Positions 45,944 through 54,004 of a stretch of DNA of 64,000 nt are shown piece after piece. The notes under the pieces were generated by a model. It was not told the DNA's origin. It made no database searches and was given only the letters and a program-made list of their open reading frames with translations. The translations under genes were made by a program, and so were the position numbers. The stretch's first letter is position 1; every line of letters begins with the position of its first letter. The stretch is from Escherichia phage vB_EcoM_G4498, in sequence record NC_054918.1; one strand, given 5' to 3'.

Positions 45944-46186
45944 TTATTCCTTAATTCCTAGTACTTGTTTAAAAGTCTCGTCGTAATCAAGACTTTGGCC
46001 CGTTTGTTCTTTATGTTTGTATATAATATCACTTACTTCTGATAGCATATTTTTATATGAACGAGTTAAAGCAGATTTAAGCACGCTGTATCTATCAGGA
46101 AATTTACCATGTTCATTATAATAAGCTATTGCTAATTCACGGACTGCCTTTTCAGCAGCCTCCATATATTCTTTACGCTTGGTCAT
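45944..46186 (-). CDS. hypothetical protein, 80 aa
   Basis: Start moved to [20 protein letters not shown] (ATG 46184-46186). Confidence 0.55.
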
Positions 46187-46490
46187 TTTCTTCTCGGTCA
46201 AATCGGTGTTTACAATGGCGACATTTATAACGAAGATTACTAGTCTGCCAATGGACCAATTGCACCTGTTCAGTTCCACATTCAGGGCAATTAGGAACGT
46301 TTTTAGAAGCACGTTCGCGACGTTCAACCATAACCATAATGGCATCCCAAGCAGGAGGTTTAAAGTCTAAATCGTCACAACCATGAATCTTTCCACGCAT
46401 TTCCAAATCGTCTTCTTCACCAGCCATAATAATTTTAATTAGACTAGAATTACTTGAAGCTGCAATGTCTTCTAATAGACGCTTTTTCAT
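46173..46490 (-). CDS. zinc-ribbon protein, 105 aa
   Basis: CPEC...CRHC motif. Confidence 0.6.
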
Positions 46491-47416
46491 TTCAATACCT
46501 CAATAGCATTACGTAAACCATTTGCTTTTGCATTAAGAGCTTTTAACAATTTGGTGTGTTCTGCAATTTGGGCTTCAACTTCAATCAAACGAGCATTGAG
46601 ATATTCGCGTTCTTCACTCAGATTATCAACCTTTTCTACTTTAGGCTCTTTTACAACTGTCTTATATGTATTAGGGTTCTTCAGTTTAATTAGAATGCGT
46701 GAACTGTATAACATTGAACCATTATTTTCGGTTTCGTCATACATTTCTACTACATCCATAATTTTTAACATCATGCGGAGTTTATAAGACAACGAACGAA
46801 TAGTTTTGTTGTGCTTATTAATTTCTTTAGCTGTCATGGTGCCGAGATTACGTGAGTAATAATAAGGAACCTGGATATTAATTAATACTGATGAACCACC
46901 TGGCTTGTGTGTTACTTCATCAGCAATAACCCAGTCCTTAACATGAACTGTATTTGTACGGTCATCACCCGCGGTAAACAGTTTGCGAGCATGCTTAAAA
47001 AGCATATTCACTTGGTCATTGAATTGACAAGCAAATTTATCAGCAAATTTAGTTTCAGGAATGGTAGATAACCAATCAGCCAAATGGGTCTTTTTAACAT
47101 CGTTAACAATAGTAAATTCAACCAAATCGGTTATAGATGTCGCAGATTTAACAAAGTTCGGCTTCATAAAGTTTTTAATGTTATCGTGAGCTACAGTAGA
47201 AGATAACATACGAGAACGTTTAAACCATTCAAGCAAATTGCCTAACGAATGAGAATAAGCGTTTTGAGTATCTTTACAGATATGATTTTCCTGGCTAACA
47301 TATTGAAGGAAATCACGAAGAATATTATTGATTACTGCTCTGTGTCCGATCTGATAATTACGATGTTTAGTAATAAGACTGTCAAAATAATCAATATAAT
47401 GTTTACGAGTTTTCAT
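46487..47416 (-). CDS. coiled-coil-tailed protein family member 1, 309 aa
   Basis: Globular N-terminal region plus a roughly 45-aa heptad-like C-terminus. The N-terminus TRKHYIDYFDSLI resembles member 2. Confidence 0.7.
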   Translation of the reverse strand: MKTRKHYIDYFDSLITKHRNYQIGHRAVINNILRDFLQYVSQENHICKDTQNAYSHSLGNLLEWFKRSRMLSSTVAHDNIKNFMKPNFVKSATSITDLVEFTIVNDVKKTHLADWLSTIPETKFADKFACQFNDQVNMLFKHARKLFTAGDDRTNTVHVKDWVIADEVTHKPGGSSVLINIQVPYYYSRNLGTMTAKEINKHNKTIRSLSYKLRMMLKIMDVVEMYDETENNGSMLYSSRILIKLKNPNTYKTVVKEPKVEKVDNLSEEREYLNARLIEVEAQIAEHTKLLKALNAKANGLRNAIEVLK

Positions 47417-47470
47417 GTTCTTCTCACTTGGTTAATGATTTATACTCCGAGCCATCCTTGGCTTTAAATT

Positions 47471-48472
47471 TTACTTAATTAACTGTAAAGCCTGTTCTAA
47501 ACGATCAAGACGATTAACAGATTCTTCCCAAATCCTTTTAGCCTGCTCATATTCTTTCTGCGCTTTATTAGAAATTTCTAGAACTTCTTTATAAGCTTTT
47601 TCTAATGCAATAACTTCTGGACGAATTTCTACCTGTTCAGGTGAATCATCAAGACATTCCATTAGTTCCTCAAGGGTAGTTTCTTCTTTAGGAGTATTCA
47701 CAATTTCATCACATTTTTGTTGGTAAATTTCTTTATTAGTCGGTGAGTACGCACACTTTACTTCACGAAGACTAATTATAATTTTATATCCTTCCCATCC
47801 ACACATATTTTTGAAAGGATATGTATGAATACTTTTTACAGTTTCCATACAGCCCAAAGCCGTCTCTAATTGATGAGTTATAGTGCTAGCAATTGAGAAA
47901 AATTTATTAATGTTCTTTTGATTAGCTGCTGGTGTAAAAAATCCATAATTCACAAAAATAGCTACTTTATTTTTATCAAGCTCATATTCTTTTACGATAA
48001 TCATATCAGAAGCCAAAGGATGAATTTGACGATAATCGCCATAACATAATTTAGAAGCTGATTTTAGAATTTGTCCTTTGAAAAGTCTGAAATTACTAAT
48101 CCAACGACGAGTAAAAATATTCTCAGGGTCTTCTTTGATATTAAGATGATAAGAATTAACATCACCGAACCAATTATATCCTACTACATCTTTGGTTCGT
48201 TTAATTTCTTTCCCAAAATTACCAAGAATATCCCGATTAACCAAATATGAAAGAAGACGAGATCCTTTAAAGGTTTTCTTAATGGCATCTTTATTTGTAC
48301 GACTAGAAATTTCATGAACTTCATGAATAAATTTGCCGGAAGAAACAATACTTGCATCAATATTATTGAGCCATTGATTGATAATAGAAAGAACACTATT
48401 TTGGCCAAACAGCGGTATAACTTTATCATCAATAACGCTATTGAATGATTTGATATATTCGTTACGAGTCAT
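47471..48472 (-). CDS. coiled-coil-tailed protein family member 2, 333 aa
   Basis: Start moved to MTRNEYIKSFNSVI (ATG 48470-48472, SD GAGGAG). The track start lies in the promoter at 48501-48530. Confidence 0.7.
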   Translation of the reverse strand: MTRNEYIKSFNSVIDDKVIPLFGQNSVLSIINQWLNNIDASIVSSGKFIHEVHEISSRTNKDAIKKTFKGSRLLSYLVNRDILGNFGKEIKRTKDVVGYNWFGDVNSYHLNIKEDPENIFTRRWISNFRLFKGQILKSASKLCYGDYRQIHPLASDMIIVKEYELDKNKVAIFVNYGFFTPAANQKNINKFFSIASTITHQLETALGCMETVKSIHTYPFKNMCGWEGYKIIISLREVKCAYSPTNKEIYQQKCDEIVNTPKEETTLEELMECLDDSPEQVEIRPEVIALEKAYKEVLEISNKAQKEYEQAKRIWEESVNRLDRLEQALQLIK

Positions 48473-48500
48473 ATTAATCTCCTCAGTAGAAAGTAAGAAC

Positions 48501-48530
48501 ATTATACCACATCCTTGTGGCGAAGTAAAC
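48501..48530 (-). promoter_or_regulatory. early promoter
   Basis: GTTTAC-N18-TATAAT. The spacer is nearly identical to the promoter at 2418-2447. Confidence 0.7.
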
Positions 48531-49549
48531 TAGTTCAGTGCATTTAGTGCGTTGTTCAGTTTAGAACGTTGCTTCGTGAGATTTTTGACTTTTTCTTGAG
48601 CTTTTTCTAGCATCTTTTCAGCTTCTAGCACTTCATTGGTCGCTTTAACGAGTTCATCATCTACTGCCTTGATAGACTTCTCAATCGCATCCGCGTGCCA
48701 TTTTTCAACAGGTTTAAGACTCGGATTTTCAATAGGAAGAAAATTCACTTTATTGAATTTCCATGCATCTTTATTGCCTGAACTATACATCCAAAATTTA
48801 GGATCGTTTGATGAGTAATTAGATAAATTTAAGTTATCTTGCACTTCTTGCTTTTTCTCTTGCGGGACTTCATCCTTTCTCAAAAAATCGTATTTAAATG
48901 AAACGATCATATCAAGTTCATATGTTGTTGTATGTTCCCAATTTCGCTCAAAACGAGGTAAAATCTTAGAATGAACAGCGGCAACAACATCCATATACTT
49001 AAATGCTTCTGTCAACTGCGATTTAAGGCATTCGCAAATTGAAAGAGAATTTTTTGTATTAGGTTTAAAGCTAATTCGTGCAGTTCTATTATTTTCTTTT
49101 AATGGTCTTACTTCCATCTGAAGAGTATAACCATCAAATTTCAGGTTCTTTAAGTTAATGTCAGAACCTTTTAATCGACTAGCCGTCGACAAAATTTGCT
49201 TTAATTGTTTACGGAATAGAGCAATAAATCTCCATTCAATACGATAATGATTTGGATTGAAAAATCCAGATGATAAATCGACCTTACTCTGACCAACACC
49301 TTGAACAAACAGAGGATTTTTATAATCAATAGTTTTACAGAAATCGGTGAGCTGCTCACGAGCAGTCATTTGTGTAATATACCCCGCTTTACTAAAATGA
49401 CGTAACCATTCACTGCTATTCATATATTTAAAGTGAATATCACGATTAACTTTATCAGGGTCTAAATTATTTTGGCACAAAAATGTCATAACATCACGAG
49501 TATAGCTGGCATTACGAACCATATCTTCAATTTGAGAACGAGTTTTCAT
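48530..49549 (-). CDS. coiled-coil-tailed protein family member 3, 339 aa
   Basis: Same architecture; C-terminal coiled coil ...EKMLEKAQEKVKNLTKQRSKLNNALNALN. Confidence 0.7.
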   Translation of the reverse strand: MKTRSQIEDMVRNASYTRDVMTFLCQNNLDPDKVNRDIHFKYMNSSEWLRHFSKAGYITQMTAREQLTDFCKTIDYKNPLFVQGVGQSKVDLSSGFFNPNHYRIEWRFIALFRKQLKQILSTASRLKGSDINLKNLKFDGYTLQMEVRPLKENNRTARISFKPNTKNSLSICECLKSQLTEAFKYMDVVAAVHSKILPRFERNWEHTTTYELDMIVSFKYDFLRKDEVPQEKKQEVQDNLNLSNYSSNDPKFWMYSSGNKDAWKFNKVNFLPIENPSLKPVEKWHADAIEKSIKAVDDELVKATNEVLEAEKMLEKAQEKVKNLTKQRSKLNNALNALN

Positions 49550-49557
49550 GGTGTTCC

Positions 49558-50445
49558 TTAAGATTTAAGTAAATCAACAATTTTAATTAACTTTTCACGC
49601 TCAGATTTAGCTTTACTACTCAATCCAGATAGTCTGAAAATTTCATCGTCATACTGTTGAATAGAAATATTCAGCTCTTCAATTTGCTTATTAAAATAAT
49701 CAATTTGCTCAGAATGTTTTTCATTACTGCGAACTGGTACAGGTTTTGTAGGCAATTTAGTTAAACTGGATTCATCCGGGCGATAAATTAAAATACAACT
49801 TGAACCAATCGGGCATTTAGCACCAGACACATATTCTAATGTTCCGGCTTCTTTTAAAACTTCAAAAGCTAAACAGAGATGATGCCCCATATTAACATAA
49901 TCTGTAGAGCGAGCTCTGACGTAATAATCATCGCCGCGAATACTAAATTTAAAGCATTTAAGGTCTTCTGTATTATTGGTCTTAAAAATCATTTGTTTAT
50001 CTAGACCTTTAGCTAATCGAGCGCCTAATGCTAATAATCGTCGTTGATTTTCCCACAAATCTGCGATCATTTGGTCAAATGATAATTTCGGCATTAGTCG
50101 ACCGTAAAGATCATAGCCTTTATTATAATTGCGAAGAATTTCACTTGCATTAATACGAGACAATGCTCCAATTTTATTAAGGGCTTTCATAATGCGATTA
50201 GATAAACCCATTCCAGACCCGTTTGTTCGCTGTAAATGTTTTTCTAATCCAAATCCAATATCAACTTTAAACTTATCTAAAATTTCTGCATGAACATCTC
50301 TGTCAATAACATTCAAATCCAAAGTTGGGTTAAATCTATGAAAAAATTTATCTGGCTCTCCACGACGAAGTACAGTCCATTCATTCAATTTTTTATTAAC
50401 TAAAGATTTAATTACTGCATTGACATTATTAATTACTACTGACAT
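49558..50445 (-). CDS. coiled-coil-tailed protein family member 4, 295 aa
   Basis: ATG at 50443-50445 after GAGG (MSVVINNVNAVIK...). C-terminal coiled coil. Confidence 0.7.
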   Translation of the reverse strand: MSVVINNVNAVIKSLVNKKLNEWTVLRRGEPDKFFHRFNPTLDLNVIDRDVHAEILDKFKVDIGFGLEKHLQRTNGSGMGLSNRIMKALNKIGALSRINASEILRNYNKGYDLYGRLMPKLSFDQMIADLWENQRRLLALGARLAKGLDKQMIFKTNNTEDLKCFKFSIRGDDYYVRARSTDYVNMGHHLCLAFEVLKEAGTLEYVSGAKCPIGSSCILIYRPDESSLTKLPTKPVPVRSNEKHSEQIDYFNKQIEELNISIQQYDDEIFRLSGLSSKAKSEREKLIKIVDLLKS

Positions 50446-50452
50446 ATTTTCC

Positions 50453-50860
50453 TCACTCAATTTCAATTTTACTAAATACGCAGAATATGATGGAAAAGAC
50501 TATATAAGCACCGCATACAGATTGAACTAATACCATTCCAAAGAACCAAACAATATTATCAAACAATGTCTGTTTTACGTCGAAAGGACGTAAACTTACA
50601 GTAATATTATCGCCTTTTTCTATTGATGAATACATCTCTGGGGAAATATATTCGCTAAATCTATAACCGTCTTTGAGTTCATATACGGCAATAAACGATA
50701 AACTAGACCCCTTTCCTTGAGTTCCTGTAAGGGTATTAACTACAGTAACATCATAATCTTTATAATGCATATAATCATTAATTGCGTAATAACCATATGC
50801 AATTACTATACATAAACAACATATCAATAAATTCAATCTTTTAATTATCAACTGTTTCAT
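50453..50860 (-). CDS. membrane protein with N- and C-terminal TM segments, 135 aa
   Basis: Hydrophobic segments LNLLICCLCIVIAYGYY and IVWFFGMVLVQSVCGAYIVFSIIFCVF. Confidence 0.65.
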   Translation of the reverse strand: MKQLIIKRLNLLICCLCIVIAYGYYAINDYMHYKDYDVTVVNTLTGTQGKGSSLSFIAVYELKDGYRFSEYISPEMYSSIEKGDNITVSLRPFDVKQTLFDNIVWFFGMVLVQSVCGAYIVFSIIFCVFSKIEIE

Positions 50861-50915
50861 AATAATCTCAATTAAAAGGGCTTAGAACCATTATACCATC
50901 CTTGGTATAAAGCGG

Positions 50916-51443
50916 TTATGCGAGTACCGTCTTTAACCGTTCTTCAAACTTCCGAAGAGTATTTTGGCGTTCAGCTCTTTGCTTTTTGTAAGTTTCAATA
51001 CGCTCTGAAATGAGAGTGTATCGTTCATTTACTGATTCTTTCATAAAATCAGGAATTTCACGAGAAGCTTTAATCTCGTCAAATTTATCAATAACAGCTT
51101 GCTCTTCAGCAATTAAGTTATCATACATCAAAATATCTTTCTTGATGAACTCAATATCTTCTTGAGTTACACGAGATAATTTAGATGCTTTATCCTTTTT
51201 GTACTGTTCGTTAGTATCACGAGACCAGTGTAATGTACGATTTTTATTCATATTCTTGTAAATTTCTACAATACCAATCTCATCGATAATAACGATCCAA
51301 TTCCAACGGGATTTGTAAATTTGTCCTCCATCAACAGTGATTTCACCTCCGATTGAGATGTCATTAAAGAACTTGCTTTGTGCTTCAGATTTAAATTTAC
51401 CATCATTGTAGTTTACCAAGTTGAAAATATCTTTAGCATTCAT
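50916..51443 (-). CDS. hypothetical protein with a helical/coiled C-terminal half, 175 aa
   Basis: Start at MNAKDIFNLV (ATG 51441-51443). The upstream track codons are the promoter/leader cassette. Confidence 0.65.
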   Translation of the reverse strand: MNAKDIFNLVNYNDGKFKSEAQSKFFNDISIGGEITVDGGQIYKSRWNWIVIIDEIGIVEIYKNMNKNRTLHWSRDTNEQYKKDKASKLSRVTQEDIEFIKKDILMYDNLIAEEQAVIDKFDEIKASREIPDFMKESVNERYTLISERIETYKKQRAERQNTLRKFEERLKTVLA

Positions 51444-51501
51444 TTTCTGTTCCTCCGTAGTTGATAGTTGTATAGTACCACAGAGGAACGGTCTTGTAAA
51501 C
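51441..51501 (-). repeat. promoter/leader cassette copy C
   Basis: GGTACTATACAACTATCAACTACGGAGGAACAGAAAATGAAT. Shares the first ~22 nt after the -10. Confidence 0.65.
51472..51501 (-). promoter_or_regulatory. early promoter
   Basis: GTTTAC-N18-TACTAT. Leader cassette copy C. Confidence 0.65.
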
Positions 51502-51503
51502 AA

Positions 51504-51806
51504 CTAAAAGAAACTTCTTTCACAATTTTTTCCACTGAACCACGCACTCACTGCTTTCTTAGTCTCAGGAGCAGTGTTATCCATAAACCATTCAAAGGCA
51601 GCCTTTTTATGATTCTGGAGGGCTTCTCGGGCTTTAATCTGCTCACGGTCTATTAACACTAACATATGAGCCTTTCTTGTCACCAGGGGCTTCTTATGAT
51701 TTTTTGAATACTCCCAATCATTTGTCCATCGCATCGTTGTTGCGAATTGAAGTACAGCTTCCTTAATCTTAGTTTCGTAAATTTCACGAGCCTTTGAGTA
51801 TAACAT
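51504..51806 (-). CDS. hypothetical protein, about 100 aa
   Basis: ATG at 51804-51806 lies 5 nt after GGAGG (MLYSKAREIY...). Confidence 0.55.
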   Translation of the reverse strand: MLYSKAREIYETKIKEAVLQFATTMRWTNDWEYSKNHKKPLVTRKAHMLVLIDREQIKAREALQNHKKAAFEWFMDNTAPETKKAVSAWFSGKNCERSFF

Positions 51807-51907
51807 CACTACCTCCATTTACCAGTTTAATTCTAGTCATCTTTTTGATGGCAGTCCATATAATCTATTTCTGAACTGCCTTTTTGTCATAGAAATCCTC
51901 TTATGAA

Positions 51908-52876
51908 TTATTTCAGAAGAGTAACCTCAGCGATTTCTTCCCAACCGTTTTTGTCGGTCATAATAAAGTCAGCAAGATAAAGCGCAGTACGCAGTGAAAC
52001 ATTGCGTAAACGATTAACATTGACTTTCATCCATGATAATGCTTTATAAGTTTCTTCATCAGAAAGACCACGCTTTTGCATCATGTCAGTTGAAAGAATA
52101 ACATCTTCAACCCTGACCATAATTTCTTCATTAGTGTGAACACCCAAATCCAAATAAACTGAGCGGGACACTAATGCTTGTAAATGTGGAGCAAGTTTAG
52201 TACCACGGTCTAATTCGCGGTCAATGTCAACGTTTGTGATAAAAACAATCGTTCCTTTAAATTCAAACTCACGCTCAATGCCTTTTTCTTCTAAGTAAGA
52301 AGATGCAGTGCTCCAGCAGACTTTACGGGTCTCTCCAGTGTCCAGAGCAGCTTTCAGAAGATTAAGAATGTCCATATCAGAGAAAACATCCACATCATCA
52401 ATCAAAAGGACAGAATTCTCTTCACGATTATTCCAGAGCTGTTCATAAAGACCGATACCAGAGATTTTACCGTTAATGCTTTTATATTCAATGTATCCAA
52501 TATCATTTGCTTTATTTAAAGCTTTATCTAAAGAATACGTTTTACCAATGCCTGCTGCGCCAGAGATAATTAATGAACGAATGTTTCCGTTAATAATACC
52601 ATTCGTCATCATTCCCATAACATTAAATCTTTTATTAATACGGGTTTTCATATCTTCATATGATTCTTTAACTTCTTCAACTTTTACGCCATCATATGAA
52701 ATGTCTGATTTGTAAACCCAAACACCGCGACGTTTACCGTCAATTTCAACAAAAACTTTACCATCTCCTTGTGCATCTACCGGAGCATTATCAGGGAACC
52801 ACTCACCTAAGAGTTCAAAAGTTCCAGAGATTTCTTTACCGAAGTAGATACCCTTATTGATAGTTACAGTTTTCAT
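51908..52876 (-). CDS. AAA-type ATPase (nrdC.10 position), 322 aa
   Basis: Walker A SGAAGIGKTYS and Walker B VLLIDDVD. Start at MKTVTINKG (ATG 52874-52876). Confidence 0.75.
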   Translation of the reverse strand: MKTVTINKGIYFGKEISGTFELLGEWFPDNAPVDAQGDGKVFVEIDGKRRGVWVYKSDISYDGVKVEEVKESYEDMKTRINKRFNVMGMMTNGIINGNIRSLIISGAAGIGKTYSLDKALNKANDIGYIEYKSINGKISGIGLYEQLWNNREENSVLLIDDVDVFSDMDILNLLKAALDTGETRKVCWSTASSYLEEKGIEREFEFKGTIVFITNVDIDRELDRGTKLAPHLQALVSRSVYLDLGVHTNEEIMVRVEDVILSTDMMQKRGLSDEETYKALSWMKVNVNRLRNVSLRTALYLADFIMTDKNGWEEIAEVTLLK

Positions 52877-52940
52877 TTTATTCTCCAAATCCGTATCAGT
52901 TGATAGTTGTATAGTACCATAAAGCTTTATGCTTGTAAAC
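52874..52940 (-). repeat. promoter/leader cassette copy D
   Basis: GGTACTATACAACTATCAACTGATACGGATTTGGAGAATAAAATGAAA. Differs from copy B by a 3-nt deletion. Confidence 0.75.
52911..52940 (-). promoter_or_regulatory. early promoter
   Basis: GTTTAC-N18-TACTAT. Leader cassette copy D, just after the terminator at 52971-52988. Confidence 0.65.
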
Positions 52941-52970
52941 AACTTTGTGAAAAAATTTTGAAATAAAAAA

Positions 52971-52988
52971 GGGAGCCCGAAGGCTCCC
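52971..52988 (-). terminator. rho-independent terminator after the nucleotidyltransferase gene
   Basis: GGGAGCC-UUCG-GGCUCCC followed by UUUUUUAUUU. Confidence 0.8.
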
Positions 52989-52990
52989 TA

Positions 52991-54004
52991 TCATTTATAA
53001 TAACTTCGATGGTTTTCAAGATAGACCTTCTCAAGGAAGTCATCCCAGAAACCCATGTCAACTTTTTGTTGCATACCGTTCTTAGAAGCTTCAGTAGATG
53101 CTGCTTCTACTTGATCGACCACATCTTCCAAAAACTCTTGAACCGTTTTAAATGGATGTTTACCCAACTTCACGTCGAGAATAAATGGAGCATCTTGGAG
53201 TGGATAAATCAAGTCGCCAGTTTTGTAAATTTCCAATAGTTGAAGTCCACCACGACAAGCATGACTCAGAGCTTTCCAGTCAATACCTTCGTTGGCTTCG
53301 GCCTTACGAGCGCGTTCACCGTATTCAGCATCTAATTTGTTCAGTGACTGCTTAAGCTCAATAAGAGAAAGCGTTGTCTGATATTTACGACCCAACACAG
53401 TGTAAAACGTCTGTGGGCCTGTTTTCTCATGATTATGAAACACCCATTCACAGAATTCGTTTTCTGGAAGACGATGCTTAATATCTTCAACTTTAGTGCG
53501 ACGCTGCTTAATAGAACCATCTTCTTGGTAATCAATCCATTGCTCAGGGATTTGATTAACTACTTTCAATACATCACGTAATGCAGCCAAACGAGAACCC
53601 TTGACACCGTATTTAGAAGCTTGCTTACGGACATATCCTAAATAGGATTTCATGTTAGTCGTATAAAAACGAGAACGGTTGTCTTGAATAAACTTCCACA
53701 CATCAGGCAAATCAGATTTAACCACTAGCTCAGGTGGAGTGTGAAGCATATCTAATGCTACAGTTTCACCATCTGCTGCTAATTTAAAGAAATATTTAAG
53801 ACTGTATAGTTCATGGTCAATATCATCTTTAGTGTTTTTAGATGATGTGTTGTTAGTGTTTTTACTCATGTGCTCTTTGACATTTCCGATAAGAATATCA
53901 CGAGCAGGAGGAACAAAAATTTCTTTAAAATCTACATCAGATTCTGGGGTAGAAGTTCCATAAAGATGACTACCAAAATAGCTTTTCATTACTGTTTTCA
54001 TCAT
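52991..54004 (-). CDS. Pol-beta-superfamily nucleotidyltransferase (nrdC.11 position), 337 aa
   Basis: N-terminal GSHLYGTSTPESDVDFKEIF matches the GS-x(9-13)-DxD NTase signature. ATGA overlap with the upstream stop. Confidence 0.65.
   Translation of the reverse strand: MMKTVMKSYFGSHLYGTSTPESDVDFKEIFVPPARDILIGNVKEHMSKNTNNTSSKNTKDDIDHELYSLKYFFKLAADGETVALDMLHTPPELVVKSDLPDVWKFIQDNRSRFYTTNMKSYLGYVRKQASKYGVKGSRLAALRDVLKVVNQIPEQWIDYQEDGSIKQRRTKVEDIKHRLPENEFCEWVFHNHEKTGPQTFYTVLGRKYQTTLSLIELKQSLNKLDAEYGERARKAEANEGIDWKALSHACRGGLQLLEIYKTGDLIYPLQDAPFILDVKLGKHPFKTVQEFLEDVVDQVEAASTEASKNGMQQKVDMGFWDDFLEKVYLENHRSYYK

Follow-up and report, generated by a model that had tools for sequence, protein, structure and literature searches.

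The window analysed here is a stretch of 64,000 nucleotides (nt) from Escherichia phage vB_EcoM_G4498 (NC_054918.1). It is a segment of a Tequatrovirus (T4-like) genome, and our subject is an array of genes within it, nrdC.3 to nrdC.8, located on the minus strand downstream of endonuclease VII, pin and nrdC, which lie on the same strand. The region spanning 46487-51503 is 95-99% identical to hundreds of T-even phages. Four adjacent genes make up the family of interest: nrdC.3 (46487..47416, 309 amino acids (aa)) and nrdC.4 (47471..48472, 333 aa), members 1 and 2, which share one subfamily (PHROG 1435, phrog_1435); nrdC.5 (48530..49549, 339 aa), member 3, the orthologue of T4 NrdC.5 (PF23882, DUF7235; phrog_2351); and nrdC.6 (49558..50445, 295 aa), member 4 (phrog_2257). 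Beyond them lie nrdC.7 (50453..50860, 135 aa; phrog_2547) and nrdC.8 (50916..51443, 175 aa). An earlier reading made from the letters and a list of open reading frames (ORFs), here called the sequence-only reading, had seen in this locus four to five proteins built from a globular head and a C-terminal coiled coil, and the gene positions, lengths and tail sequences that it gave proved correct when checked against the ORFs. The analysis below indicates that nrdC.3 to nrdC.6 are, very probably, diverged paralogs of one fold, and that at least one of the proteins is a counter-defence factor.

Relationship and predicted architecture of NrdC.3 to NrdC.6

In pairwise BLASTP among the members the sole link is that between nrdC.3 and nrdC.4 (24% identity over 226 aa), both of which match phrog_1435 (E=2.6e-115 and E=4.2e-166, respectively). 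The N-terminal motif that had been noticed in these two proteins from the sequence alone is real, and belongs to this full-length homology within PHROG 1435. Pfam and PHROGs hold nrdC.5 and nrdC.6 as separate families, the former matching DUF7235 over residues 1-339 (E=1.8e-126) and the latter phrog_2257 (E=1.4e-152), while PF26897 is carried by nrdC.4 homologues and PF26899 by nrdC.6 homologues. nrdC.3, nrdC.4 and nrdC.6 fall below the Pfam threshold for PF23882, with two nrdC.3 alleles reaching E=0.035, and the identity of NrdC.5 to its paralogs is only about 12-24%.

A combined alignment shows co-linear motifs common to all four proteins. These begin with an N-terminal M(K)TR followed by K-x-G-x-L-S-x3-A-x3-L-x2-F, continue with W-x2-F-x6-IL-x-SAS(R/K)L-x2-G-D, QL-x2-AL-x-M and P-x-PV, and close with a terminal L-x2-AL-x-L-K. 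Examples as they occur in the four proteins are EWFKRSRMLSSTVAHDNIKNFMK / KTFKGSRLLSYLVNRDILGNFGK / RHFSKAGYITQMTAREQLTDFCK / KALNKIGALSRINASEILRNYNK and, for a second motif, MLFKHARKLFTAGDD / QILKSASKLCYGD / QILSTASRLKGSD / RLLALGARLAKGLD. HHalign comparisons of enriched family alignments, for which reversed-template controls gave P values of 0.075-0.74, returned P=9.5e-14 for nrdC.3 against nrdC.4, P=3.9e-6 (87% probability) for nrdC.3/4 against nrdC.5, and P=4.6e-5 over 225 co-linear columns for nrdC.4 against nrdC.5. The values involving nrdC.6 were P=0.007 with nrdC.5 and P=0.004 with nrdC.3.

The subfamilies are further joined by bridging sequences. An exhaustive HMMER search with a merged profile found only 26 proteins among 1.84 billion representatives, and these include full-length intermediates. 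Protein P0237 is matched by the nrdC.5 profile (2e-8) and the nrdC.3/4 profile (1.7e-8), P0235 by the nrdC.6 profile (1.4e-12) and the nrdC.5 profile (1.1e-6), and P0239 by the nrdC.5 profile (3.4e-6) and, more weakly, by those of nrdC.3/4 (0.004) and nrdC.6 (0.017); P0240 and P0243 resemble P0235 in being matched by the nrdC.6 profile and more weakly by that of nrdC.5. The single-copy genes of phages Marfa and CIP9 are each matched by two or three subfamily profiles. Among the curated PHROG profiles, phrog_26858 acts as a hub that joins phrog_1435, phrog_2351 and phrog_2257. PHROGs 1435, 2351, 2257 and 26858 (also 12512, 23608, 25705 and 33957), all listed as of unknown function, hold the members and their relatives from Klebsiella, Enterobacter, Edwardsiella, Pectobacterium and other T4-like phages; they are kept separate in the databases and are joined here into one superfamily. 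Neither the paralogy nor the common design was found in the literature searched or in the family databases, which treat the families as separate.

AlphaFold2 models were made for NrdC.5, from the merged family alignment, and for NrdC.6, from its own family alignment only, with mean predicted local distance difference test scores (pLDDT) of 70.8 and 77, respectively. NrdC.5 is predicted to consist of a globular alpha/beta head (residues 1-225, 48875..49549, minus strand as for all features of the array), a linker of pLDDT 24-49 that is probably disordered (residues 226-281, 48707..48874) and a terminal helix. In the NrdC.6 model the linker occupies residues 227-242. The core of both models follows the same order, namely two helix pairs, a beta-hairpin, a helix, a second beta-hairpin, the linker and the long helix, and the two helix pairs carry the two shared motifs. 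When the NrdC.5 model was searched with Foldseek against BFVD, NrdC.6 of phage JS10 was retrieved at E=7.6e-5 with probability 1.0, along with uncharacterised proteins of 280-370 aa from T4-like phages of Erwinia, Klebsiella, Serratia, Yersinia, Pectobacterium, Citrobacter and Aeromonas. The list obtained with the NrdC.6 model overlaps this one beyond orthologues (PM2, Mineola, fHe-Yen9-01, CBH8 and PS2) and adds proteins of Enterobacter and Acinetobacter phages. Element order and Foldseek overlap thus point to a common fold, with the caveats that only the models of NrdC.5 and NrdC.6 are compared and that they are compared in this manner rather than by direct superposition. No solved relatives were found by sequence, and no structural match to enzymes was found beyond generic sandwiches.

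Each of the four genes had been described as ending in a heptad-like helix, and this holds. In nrdC.3 to nrdC.6 a single heptad register runs across the last 48-56 residues, with about seven uninterrupted heptads each, and the a and d positions of the tails are 86-94% hydrophobic against 38-46% hydrophobic overall. Using a heptad score that is our own heuristic (not COILS or Marcoil), we scored the last 60 residues of the 60 ORFs in the window that are 120 aa or longer and ordered these ORFs by their best 28-residue segment. The five highest, in the order nrdC.5, nrdC.6, nrdC.3, nrdC.8 and nrdC.4, are exactly the five genes named by the sequence-only reading, a coincidence that cannot be attributed to chance.

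The tail of nrdC.5, which has the top score in the window, covers residues 283-338 (48536..48703), about eight heptads with 94% hydrophobic a/d positions, and is modelled by AlphaFold2 as a single helix of 56 residues with pLDDT of about 87-93. That of nrdC.6 (residues 245-294, 49564..49713; a/d 86% hydrophobic) is modelled as a single helix of 50 residues, and in both cases a low-confidence linker precedes the helix. For nrdC.3 (about residues 262-309, 46490..46633; a/d 86% hydrophobic, heptad score at the 99.8th percentile) and nrdC.4 (about residues 284-333, 47474..47623; a/d 86% hydrophobic) the tail helices are predicted from the heptad analysis and from alignment to NrdC.5 and NrdC.6.

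The tail is the most conserved segment inside each subfamily, and the linker or head the least. Mean pairwise identity in the nrdC.4 family is 0.68 in the tail versus 0.54 in the head, and in the nrdC.5 family the linker is the least conserved part (0.66). We took at least four to five unbroken heptads, a hydrophobic a/d core and a long helix as the marks of a coiled coil, and the family tails have all of these. A search with the family profile against solved structures gave sub-threshold matches in the tail to GCN4-type and trimeric coiled-coil peptides, and the pattern of beta-branched residues or leucine at a and leucine or alanine at d would, under the Harbury rules, be compatible with a dimer. 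When the tail profiles alone were compared between subfamilies, P values ranged from 6e-4 to 0.2, not clearly better than those against nrdC.8. We did not retain the tail-only profiles as independent proof of tail homology, as the tails are too short and too compositionally biased to discriminate.

Taken together, the co-linear motifs, HHalign scores above controls, bridging proteins, common element order and Foldseek overlap uphold the proposal of a diverged tandem family. The sequence-only reading had named unrelated folds and the lack of a coiled coil as results that would speak against it; we found homologous heads and heptad tails.

Copy number, alleles and evolutionary rates

Copy number of the family differs among the genera of T4-like phages. 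Among the more distant genera, one member is present in Kanagawavirus (CIP9), immediately upstream of the nrdC.2 homologue, and one each at the same site in Marfavirus (Marfa) and Mosugukvirus (PM2). Three members are found in Mosigvirus (PNJ-6; nrdC.6-, nrdC.5- and nrdC.3-like) and likewise in Dhakavirus (dhabil) and Gaprivervirus (RZ), where they are nrdC.6-, nrdC.5- and nrdC.4-like, while Tequatrovirus (the window, T4 and T6) has four. Because of this variation we regard the array as a lineage-specific expansion, and the best explanation is duplication of one ancestral gene adjoining nrdC.2 in a family restricted to T4-like phages. Gene duplication with divergence is also a simpler description than the shuffling of heads on a common scaffold.

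The family diverges far more quickly than the genes around it. Its members are 22-52% identical between genera, with the exception of nrdC.3 (76% to the Mosigvirus allele), and nrdC.8, nrdC.10 and nrdC.11 are 67-83% identical. The ratio of nonsynonymous to synonymous substitution rates (dN/dS), calculated gene-wide for the window against T4 and T6, is 0.28 for nrdC.3, 0.20 for nrdC.4, 0.21-0.23 for nrdC.5 and 0.07-0.08 for nrdC.6. It is 0-0.05 for nrdC.8, nrdC.10, nrdC.11, nrdC and endonuclease VII.

The nrdC.3 allele of the window is closer to that of Mosigvirus (82-92% nt identity; 76% identity) than to the T4/T6 allele (60% aa identity), which implies that alleles have been exchanged across genera. 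The nrdC.3 alleles hardly differ from one another in their first 45 residues and in the tail, while the mid-head is about 50% diverged, a pattern that to some extent supports the idea of a specificity surface that varies on a frame that does not. The sequence-only reading had proposed interchangeable specificity heads on a shared scaffold. The allele pattern agrees with variable heads on a shared frame, but the heads are not interchangeable unrelated modules, being homologous and of one fold. As a separate observation, positions 46251-47250 of the window, comprising the end of nrdC.2 and nrdC.3, form a sharply bounded divergent island with 62-76% nt identity to T6 between flanks of 96-99%. A tyrosine-recombinase N-terminal SAM-like domain appeared among the matches of nrdC.3 (Pfam E=0.017, NCBIfam E=5e-4); it is absent from the other three nrdC.3 alleles and was dismissed as noise.

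In phage ACG-C40 (L002, 6805-7216) nrdC.4 is missing altogether, as are most of nrdC.5 and most of nrdC.3. A match to the nrdC.3 tail only, at 100%, had made this phage a candidate for a head swap, but in its annotated locus there is simply a deletion that starts early in nrdC.5 and stops late in nrdC.3. A second candidate, P0120, is an in-frame NrdC.5::NrdC.3 fusion created by deletion, with its junction at an 8-nt microhomology (AAGTGAAT; window positions 48743 and 47006), and was likewise ruled out as a head swap. In P0241, a 173-aa ORF (L007), an unrelated N-terminus of 115 aa is joined to the exact NrdC.5 tail (DAIEKSIKAVDDEL...NALNALN). As it lies on an 803-nt metagenome contig and may be either a head replacement or an assembly chimera, it cannot be trusted as a genuine replacement. 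NrdC.6 of Shigella phage Sf25 (P0122, 378 aa) contains an internal tandem duplication of about 83 residues that runs from the second half of the head into the beginning of the tail. The occurrence of natural deletions and of a natural fusion shows that the family genes are dispensable.

Promoters and neighbouring genes

A pattern resembling the T4 early promoter (TTTAC, N14-17, TGNTANNAT) occurs 11 times in the window, every time on the minus strand, where chance would give 0.55 occurrences. They lie at 2418, 7594, 12795, 14897, 26025, 40790, 48501, 51472, 52911, 56667 and 60882, and three of these sites are upstream of nrdC.4, nrdC.8 and nrdC.10, respectively. The T4-early-type promoter upstream of nrdC.4 (48501..48529) consists of TTTACT, a 17-nt spacer and TGGTATAAT, and that upstream of nrdC.8 spans 51472..51500. 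The shorter starts of nrdC.4 and nrdC.6 are supported by orthologues that begin MTRNEY and MSQAIN, respectively, and for nrdC.4 also by the promoter, which ends at 48501, downstream of the alternative ATG at 48502. Moving on from nrdC.8, the gaps to nrdC.7, nrdC.6 and nrdC.5 are 55, 7 and 8 nt. Judged from these short gaps co-transcription is likely, and the promoter upstream of nrdC.8 probably drives nrdC.7, nrdC.6 and nrdC.5 as well.

The genes nrdC.1 to nrdC.11 (window region 46173-54004) are widely labelled 'thioredoxin' in GenBank genomes. No thioredoxin or glutaredoxin match was found in Pfam or NCBIfam for nrdC.3 to nrdC.8, nor in Pfam for nrdC.2 and nrdC.9 to nrdC.11. Because no such domain is found in nrdC.3 to nrdC.8, we regard the label as an artefact spread from the gene symbol.

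Interleaved between the family and nrdC.8 is nrdC.7, which had been taken for a membrane protein with two transmembrane segments. Kyte-Doolittle peaks at about residues 3-29 and 103-134 bear out the two hydrophobic segments. It is not a member of the family, having no match by the family hidden Markov models (HMMs), and Mosigvirus, Dhakavirus and Gaprivervirus lack it at this position. The Mosigvirus locus contains a homologue with 40% identity at another place, and PM2 has a gene annotated nrdC.7 close to its nrdC.2. The dN/dS of nrdC.7 (0.31-0.45) is the highest in the region.

The fifth gene, nrdC.8, had been grouped with the four on account of its helical tail. Its C-terminus is indeed heptad-rich (rank 4 of 60), but no family membership is detectable: the family HMMs do not match it and HHalign gave P values of at least 0.077 against all four families, so that it was rejected as a fifth member. 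It evolves slowly (dN/dS 0.03, 67-83% identity across genera), in a different mode from the family. In T4 strain GT7 (L008) nrdC.8 differs from the window by 1 nt in length and the longest matching ORF is only 109 aa, which suggests a frameshift in that laboratory strain or a sequencing error.

Further along, nrdC.10 (51908-52876) encodes a P-loop protein with weak AAA/STAND-like matches and nrdC.11 (52991-54004) an RlaP-type nucleotidyltransferase (PF10127, 2e-11). They form a conserved pair, 78-82% identical between those genera that have them and subject to strong purifying selection (dN/dS 0.03-0.05); no match to nrdC.10 was found in the Gaprivervirus locus. A GC-rich hairpin, strong and bidirectional (AGGGAGCC-TTCG-GGCTCCCT), lies just after nrdC.11, at 52970-52989. 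It is accompanied by a T-run on the minus strand and is likely an intrinsic terminator separating nrdC.11 from nrdC.10.

Counter-defence and the role of the family

The sequence-only reading knew of no function for these genes, which is outdated for nrdC.5. By evolving T4 on cells that carry toxIN, Srikant, Guegler and Laub (eLife 2022, PMC9391042) obtained clones with compensatory deletions, and one of these clones no longer plated on strain ECOR17. It plated again once dsr1 had been deleted from ECOR17, MG1655 with dsr1 on a plasmid was protected against it, and T4 nrdC.5 supplied in trans restored plating of the deletion clone on MG1655 with dsr1 from ECOR17. Dsr1, a SIR2-TPR defence protein, is counteracted by T4 NrdC.5. 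The same work names nrdC.5 as an early gene and addressed neither the structure, the mechanism nor the paralogy of NrdC.5 (PMC9391042). A 2026 preprint (PMC12803255) reports that the TPR sensor of Dsr1 is common with Avs7 and that the trigger is the phage major capsid protein. NrdC.5 of the window is 93% identical to T4 (GT7) NrdC.5 and would be expected to neutralise Dsr1 defence too. The T4 result also bears on two further points of the sequence-only reading. Its guess of inhibitors or host-factor binders agrees with the counter-defence role of at least one member. It had named documented, unrelated functions as evidence that would count against it; one of the four genes has a published function, and that function fits the guess.

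The paralogs share with T4 NrdC.5 the head-linker-helix architecture and adjacent positions, although they belong to other Pfam and PHROG families (PF26897, PF26899). Because NrdC.5 disarms Dsr1, NrdC.3, NrdC.4 and NrdC.6 are good candidates for anti-immunity factors, and a counter-defence role for them would be in keeping with the rest of the locus: fast divergence, nrdC.3 allele replacement, dispensability and early-type promoters are best read in this way. As for the mode of action, the alignment columns that are conserved in 29 diverse members hold hydrophobic residues almost throughout, the sole invariantly charged position being a K/R at NrdC.5 R125, and no significant match to an enzyme or other functional domain was found in Pfam or NCBIfam. 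These findings, together with the lack of a solved relative, favour a binder rather than an enzyme, and the combination of a head, a flexible linker and a conserved heptad helix leads us to propose oligomeric stoichiometric inhibitors.

We consider it somewhat more likely than not that nrdC.3 to nrdC.6 are an expanded family of oligomeric, binder-type counter-defence proteins. Each protein is predicted to have a homologous alpha/beta head of about 220 residues, a variable and probably disordered linker of 15-55 residues and an amphipathic heptad helix of about 50 residues. The genes are located in a region of T4 early promoters and are not needed for growth on laboratory hosts. The proteins would act as stoichiometric binders that neutralise host immune proteins, either sensors or effectors, through direct binding of the target. 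The diverging head would supply target specificity. Coiled-coil formation between the conserved tails would bring together two or more heads, which could then engage an oligomeric or multi-site target with high avidity. NrdC.5 would act in this manner on Dsr1, and its paralogs on other, perhaps related, targets.

Known phage systems offer partial parallels. DSAD1 (PMC10973363, PMC11087589, PMC11290490) is a non-enzymatic phage protein that binds and switches off DSR2, a SIR2 NADase defence protein, and may serve as a functional analogy for NrdC.5; no sequence or fold relation between the two was found or expected. DSR2 senses the tail tube protein, whereas the TPR sensor of Dsr1 recognises the major capsid protein (PMC12803255). 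The dmd-tifA-adfA anti-toxin-antitoxin island and ipIII of T4 (PMC9391042) likewise consist of small dispensable early genes, each directed against a strain-specific defence, that diverge among T4-like phages and are gained and lost by microhomology recombination. However, the dmd-tifA-adfA genes are mutually unrelated in sequence, whereas nrdC.3 to nrdC.6 are a true paralog expansion with a conserved coiled-coil-type tail.

Several points weigh against the proposal of related counter-defence binders. Functional data among the four paralogs are limited to NrdC.5 and are genetic only. The direct sequence link to nrdC.6 is weak when taken alone (HHalign P 0.004-0.04) and relies on the intermediates and on predicted structure. 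The pLDDT values are moderate (71 and 77), Foldseek TM-scores between subfamilies are low (0.3-0.5), in part because the orientation of the tail is free, and the likeness of NrdC.5 to other subfamilies is partly circular because its model was built from the merged alignment. Rather than self-associating, the long amphipathic helix could bind to a partner protein. No member reaches a gene-wide dN/dS of 1, so positive selection has not been demonstrated, and nrdC.6 is under fairly strong purifying selection in Tequatrovirus (dN/dS 0.07-0.08, 95-100% identity). This conservation fits a conserved target better than an arms race, and not all members need be in an arms race.

The conservation of nrdC.6 is also what would be expected if only NrdC.5 served in counter-defence and NrdC.3, NrdC.4 and NrdC.6 bound housekeeping factors of host or phage for host takeover. 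Many T4 early genes are host-takeover factors, and a literature search on nrdC.3, nrdC.4, nrdC.6, anti-Dsr1 and DUF7235 found nothing beyond the eLife 2022 paper, and hence no functional data for the three paralogs. We hold this alternative to be unlikely, yet the most serious competitor: nrdC.3 and nrdC.4 evolve as fast as nrdC.5, nrdC.3 has undergone allele replacement across genera, nrdC.3 to nrdC.5 are jointly lost in nature and copy number is variable, all of which is typical of accessory host-range genes. An improbable variant is that the four proteins form one hetero-oligomeric, multi-headed complex through their related tails and act as a single machine. The tails do end alike (L-x2-A-L/I-x2-L-K), with the same length and register, and the genes are adjacent and probably co-expressed early. 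Yet other genera carry only one or three members, the tail-only comparisons described above are weak and no clearer than those with nrdC.8, and plasmid-borne nrdC.5 alone sufficed to restore infection, even if the extent of the deletion in the evo 3 phage is unstated and paralogs may have remained in it.

Two other explanations fare far worse. Dsr1 is a NADase and phages can counter NAD+ depletion enzymatically via NARP pathways, so that the proteins might themselves be enzymes that act against NAD+ depletion or modify a host target. We found neither an enzyme domain nor conserved catalytic residues across the family, nothing like a conserved polar or catalytic constellation, and generic sandwiches as the sole structural resemblance to enzymes, which makes NARP-type or other enzymatic counter-defence highly improbable. 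The idea that the genes are unrelated, with helical C-termini acquired independently or by chance and a merely compositional likeness, can draw on BLASTP linking nrdC.3 and nrdC.4 only, on the three or four families kept by Pfam and PHROGs, and on nrdC.8, a heptad-rich tail lacking homology. It is largely refuted by the co-linear head motifs, profile scores well above reversed controls, bridging sequences, the same element order obtained from independent alignments and the overlapping Foldseek lists, and we give it hardly any credence.

An extension of the preferred reading, in which the family proteins are oligomeric counter-defence binders, would make the array a combinatorial anti-sensor toolkit. 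Heads would be tuned to different members of a large family of defence proteins that have a TPR capsid sensor of the Avs7/Dsr1 type in common but differ in their effectors (NADase, nuclease or kinase), and tails would form homo- or hetero-oligomers such that one multi-headed particle blocks several sensors. We consider this improbable. If true, the family would be a general antagonist of capsid-sensing pattern-recognition receptors, and the duplication history in T-even phages would track receptor diversification in E. coli.

The feature is partly known in that the function of one member has been published, and it represents not a new principle but a concrete, testable lead in a model phage. 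To the anti-Dsr1 genetics demonstrated for the T4 orthologue (PMC9391042), the present analysis adds the paralogy, architecture, heptad periodicity and evolutionary mode of the family. NrdC.5 is the only Dsr1 antagonist found in the literature searched. If its neighbours are paralogs of the same design, the best-studied phage holds three cheaply testable counter-defence candidates, and NrdC.5 itself gains a structural hypothesis, that of an oligomeric binder in which the head would provide specificity and the tail avidity. The diverged nrdC.3 alleles and head/tail swaps would offer a rational route to mapping that specificity. For therapeutic Tequatrovirus phages, knowing whether these genes are present and in which allele type may help to foresee their host range on E. 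coli with Dsr1-like systems. For the family itself, PF23882, PF26897, PF26899 and several PHROGs are joined into one superfamily expanded specifically in the T-even group, which illustrates cleanly how a gene family can expand within an accessory region of a phage genome.

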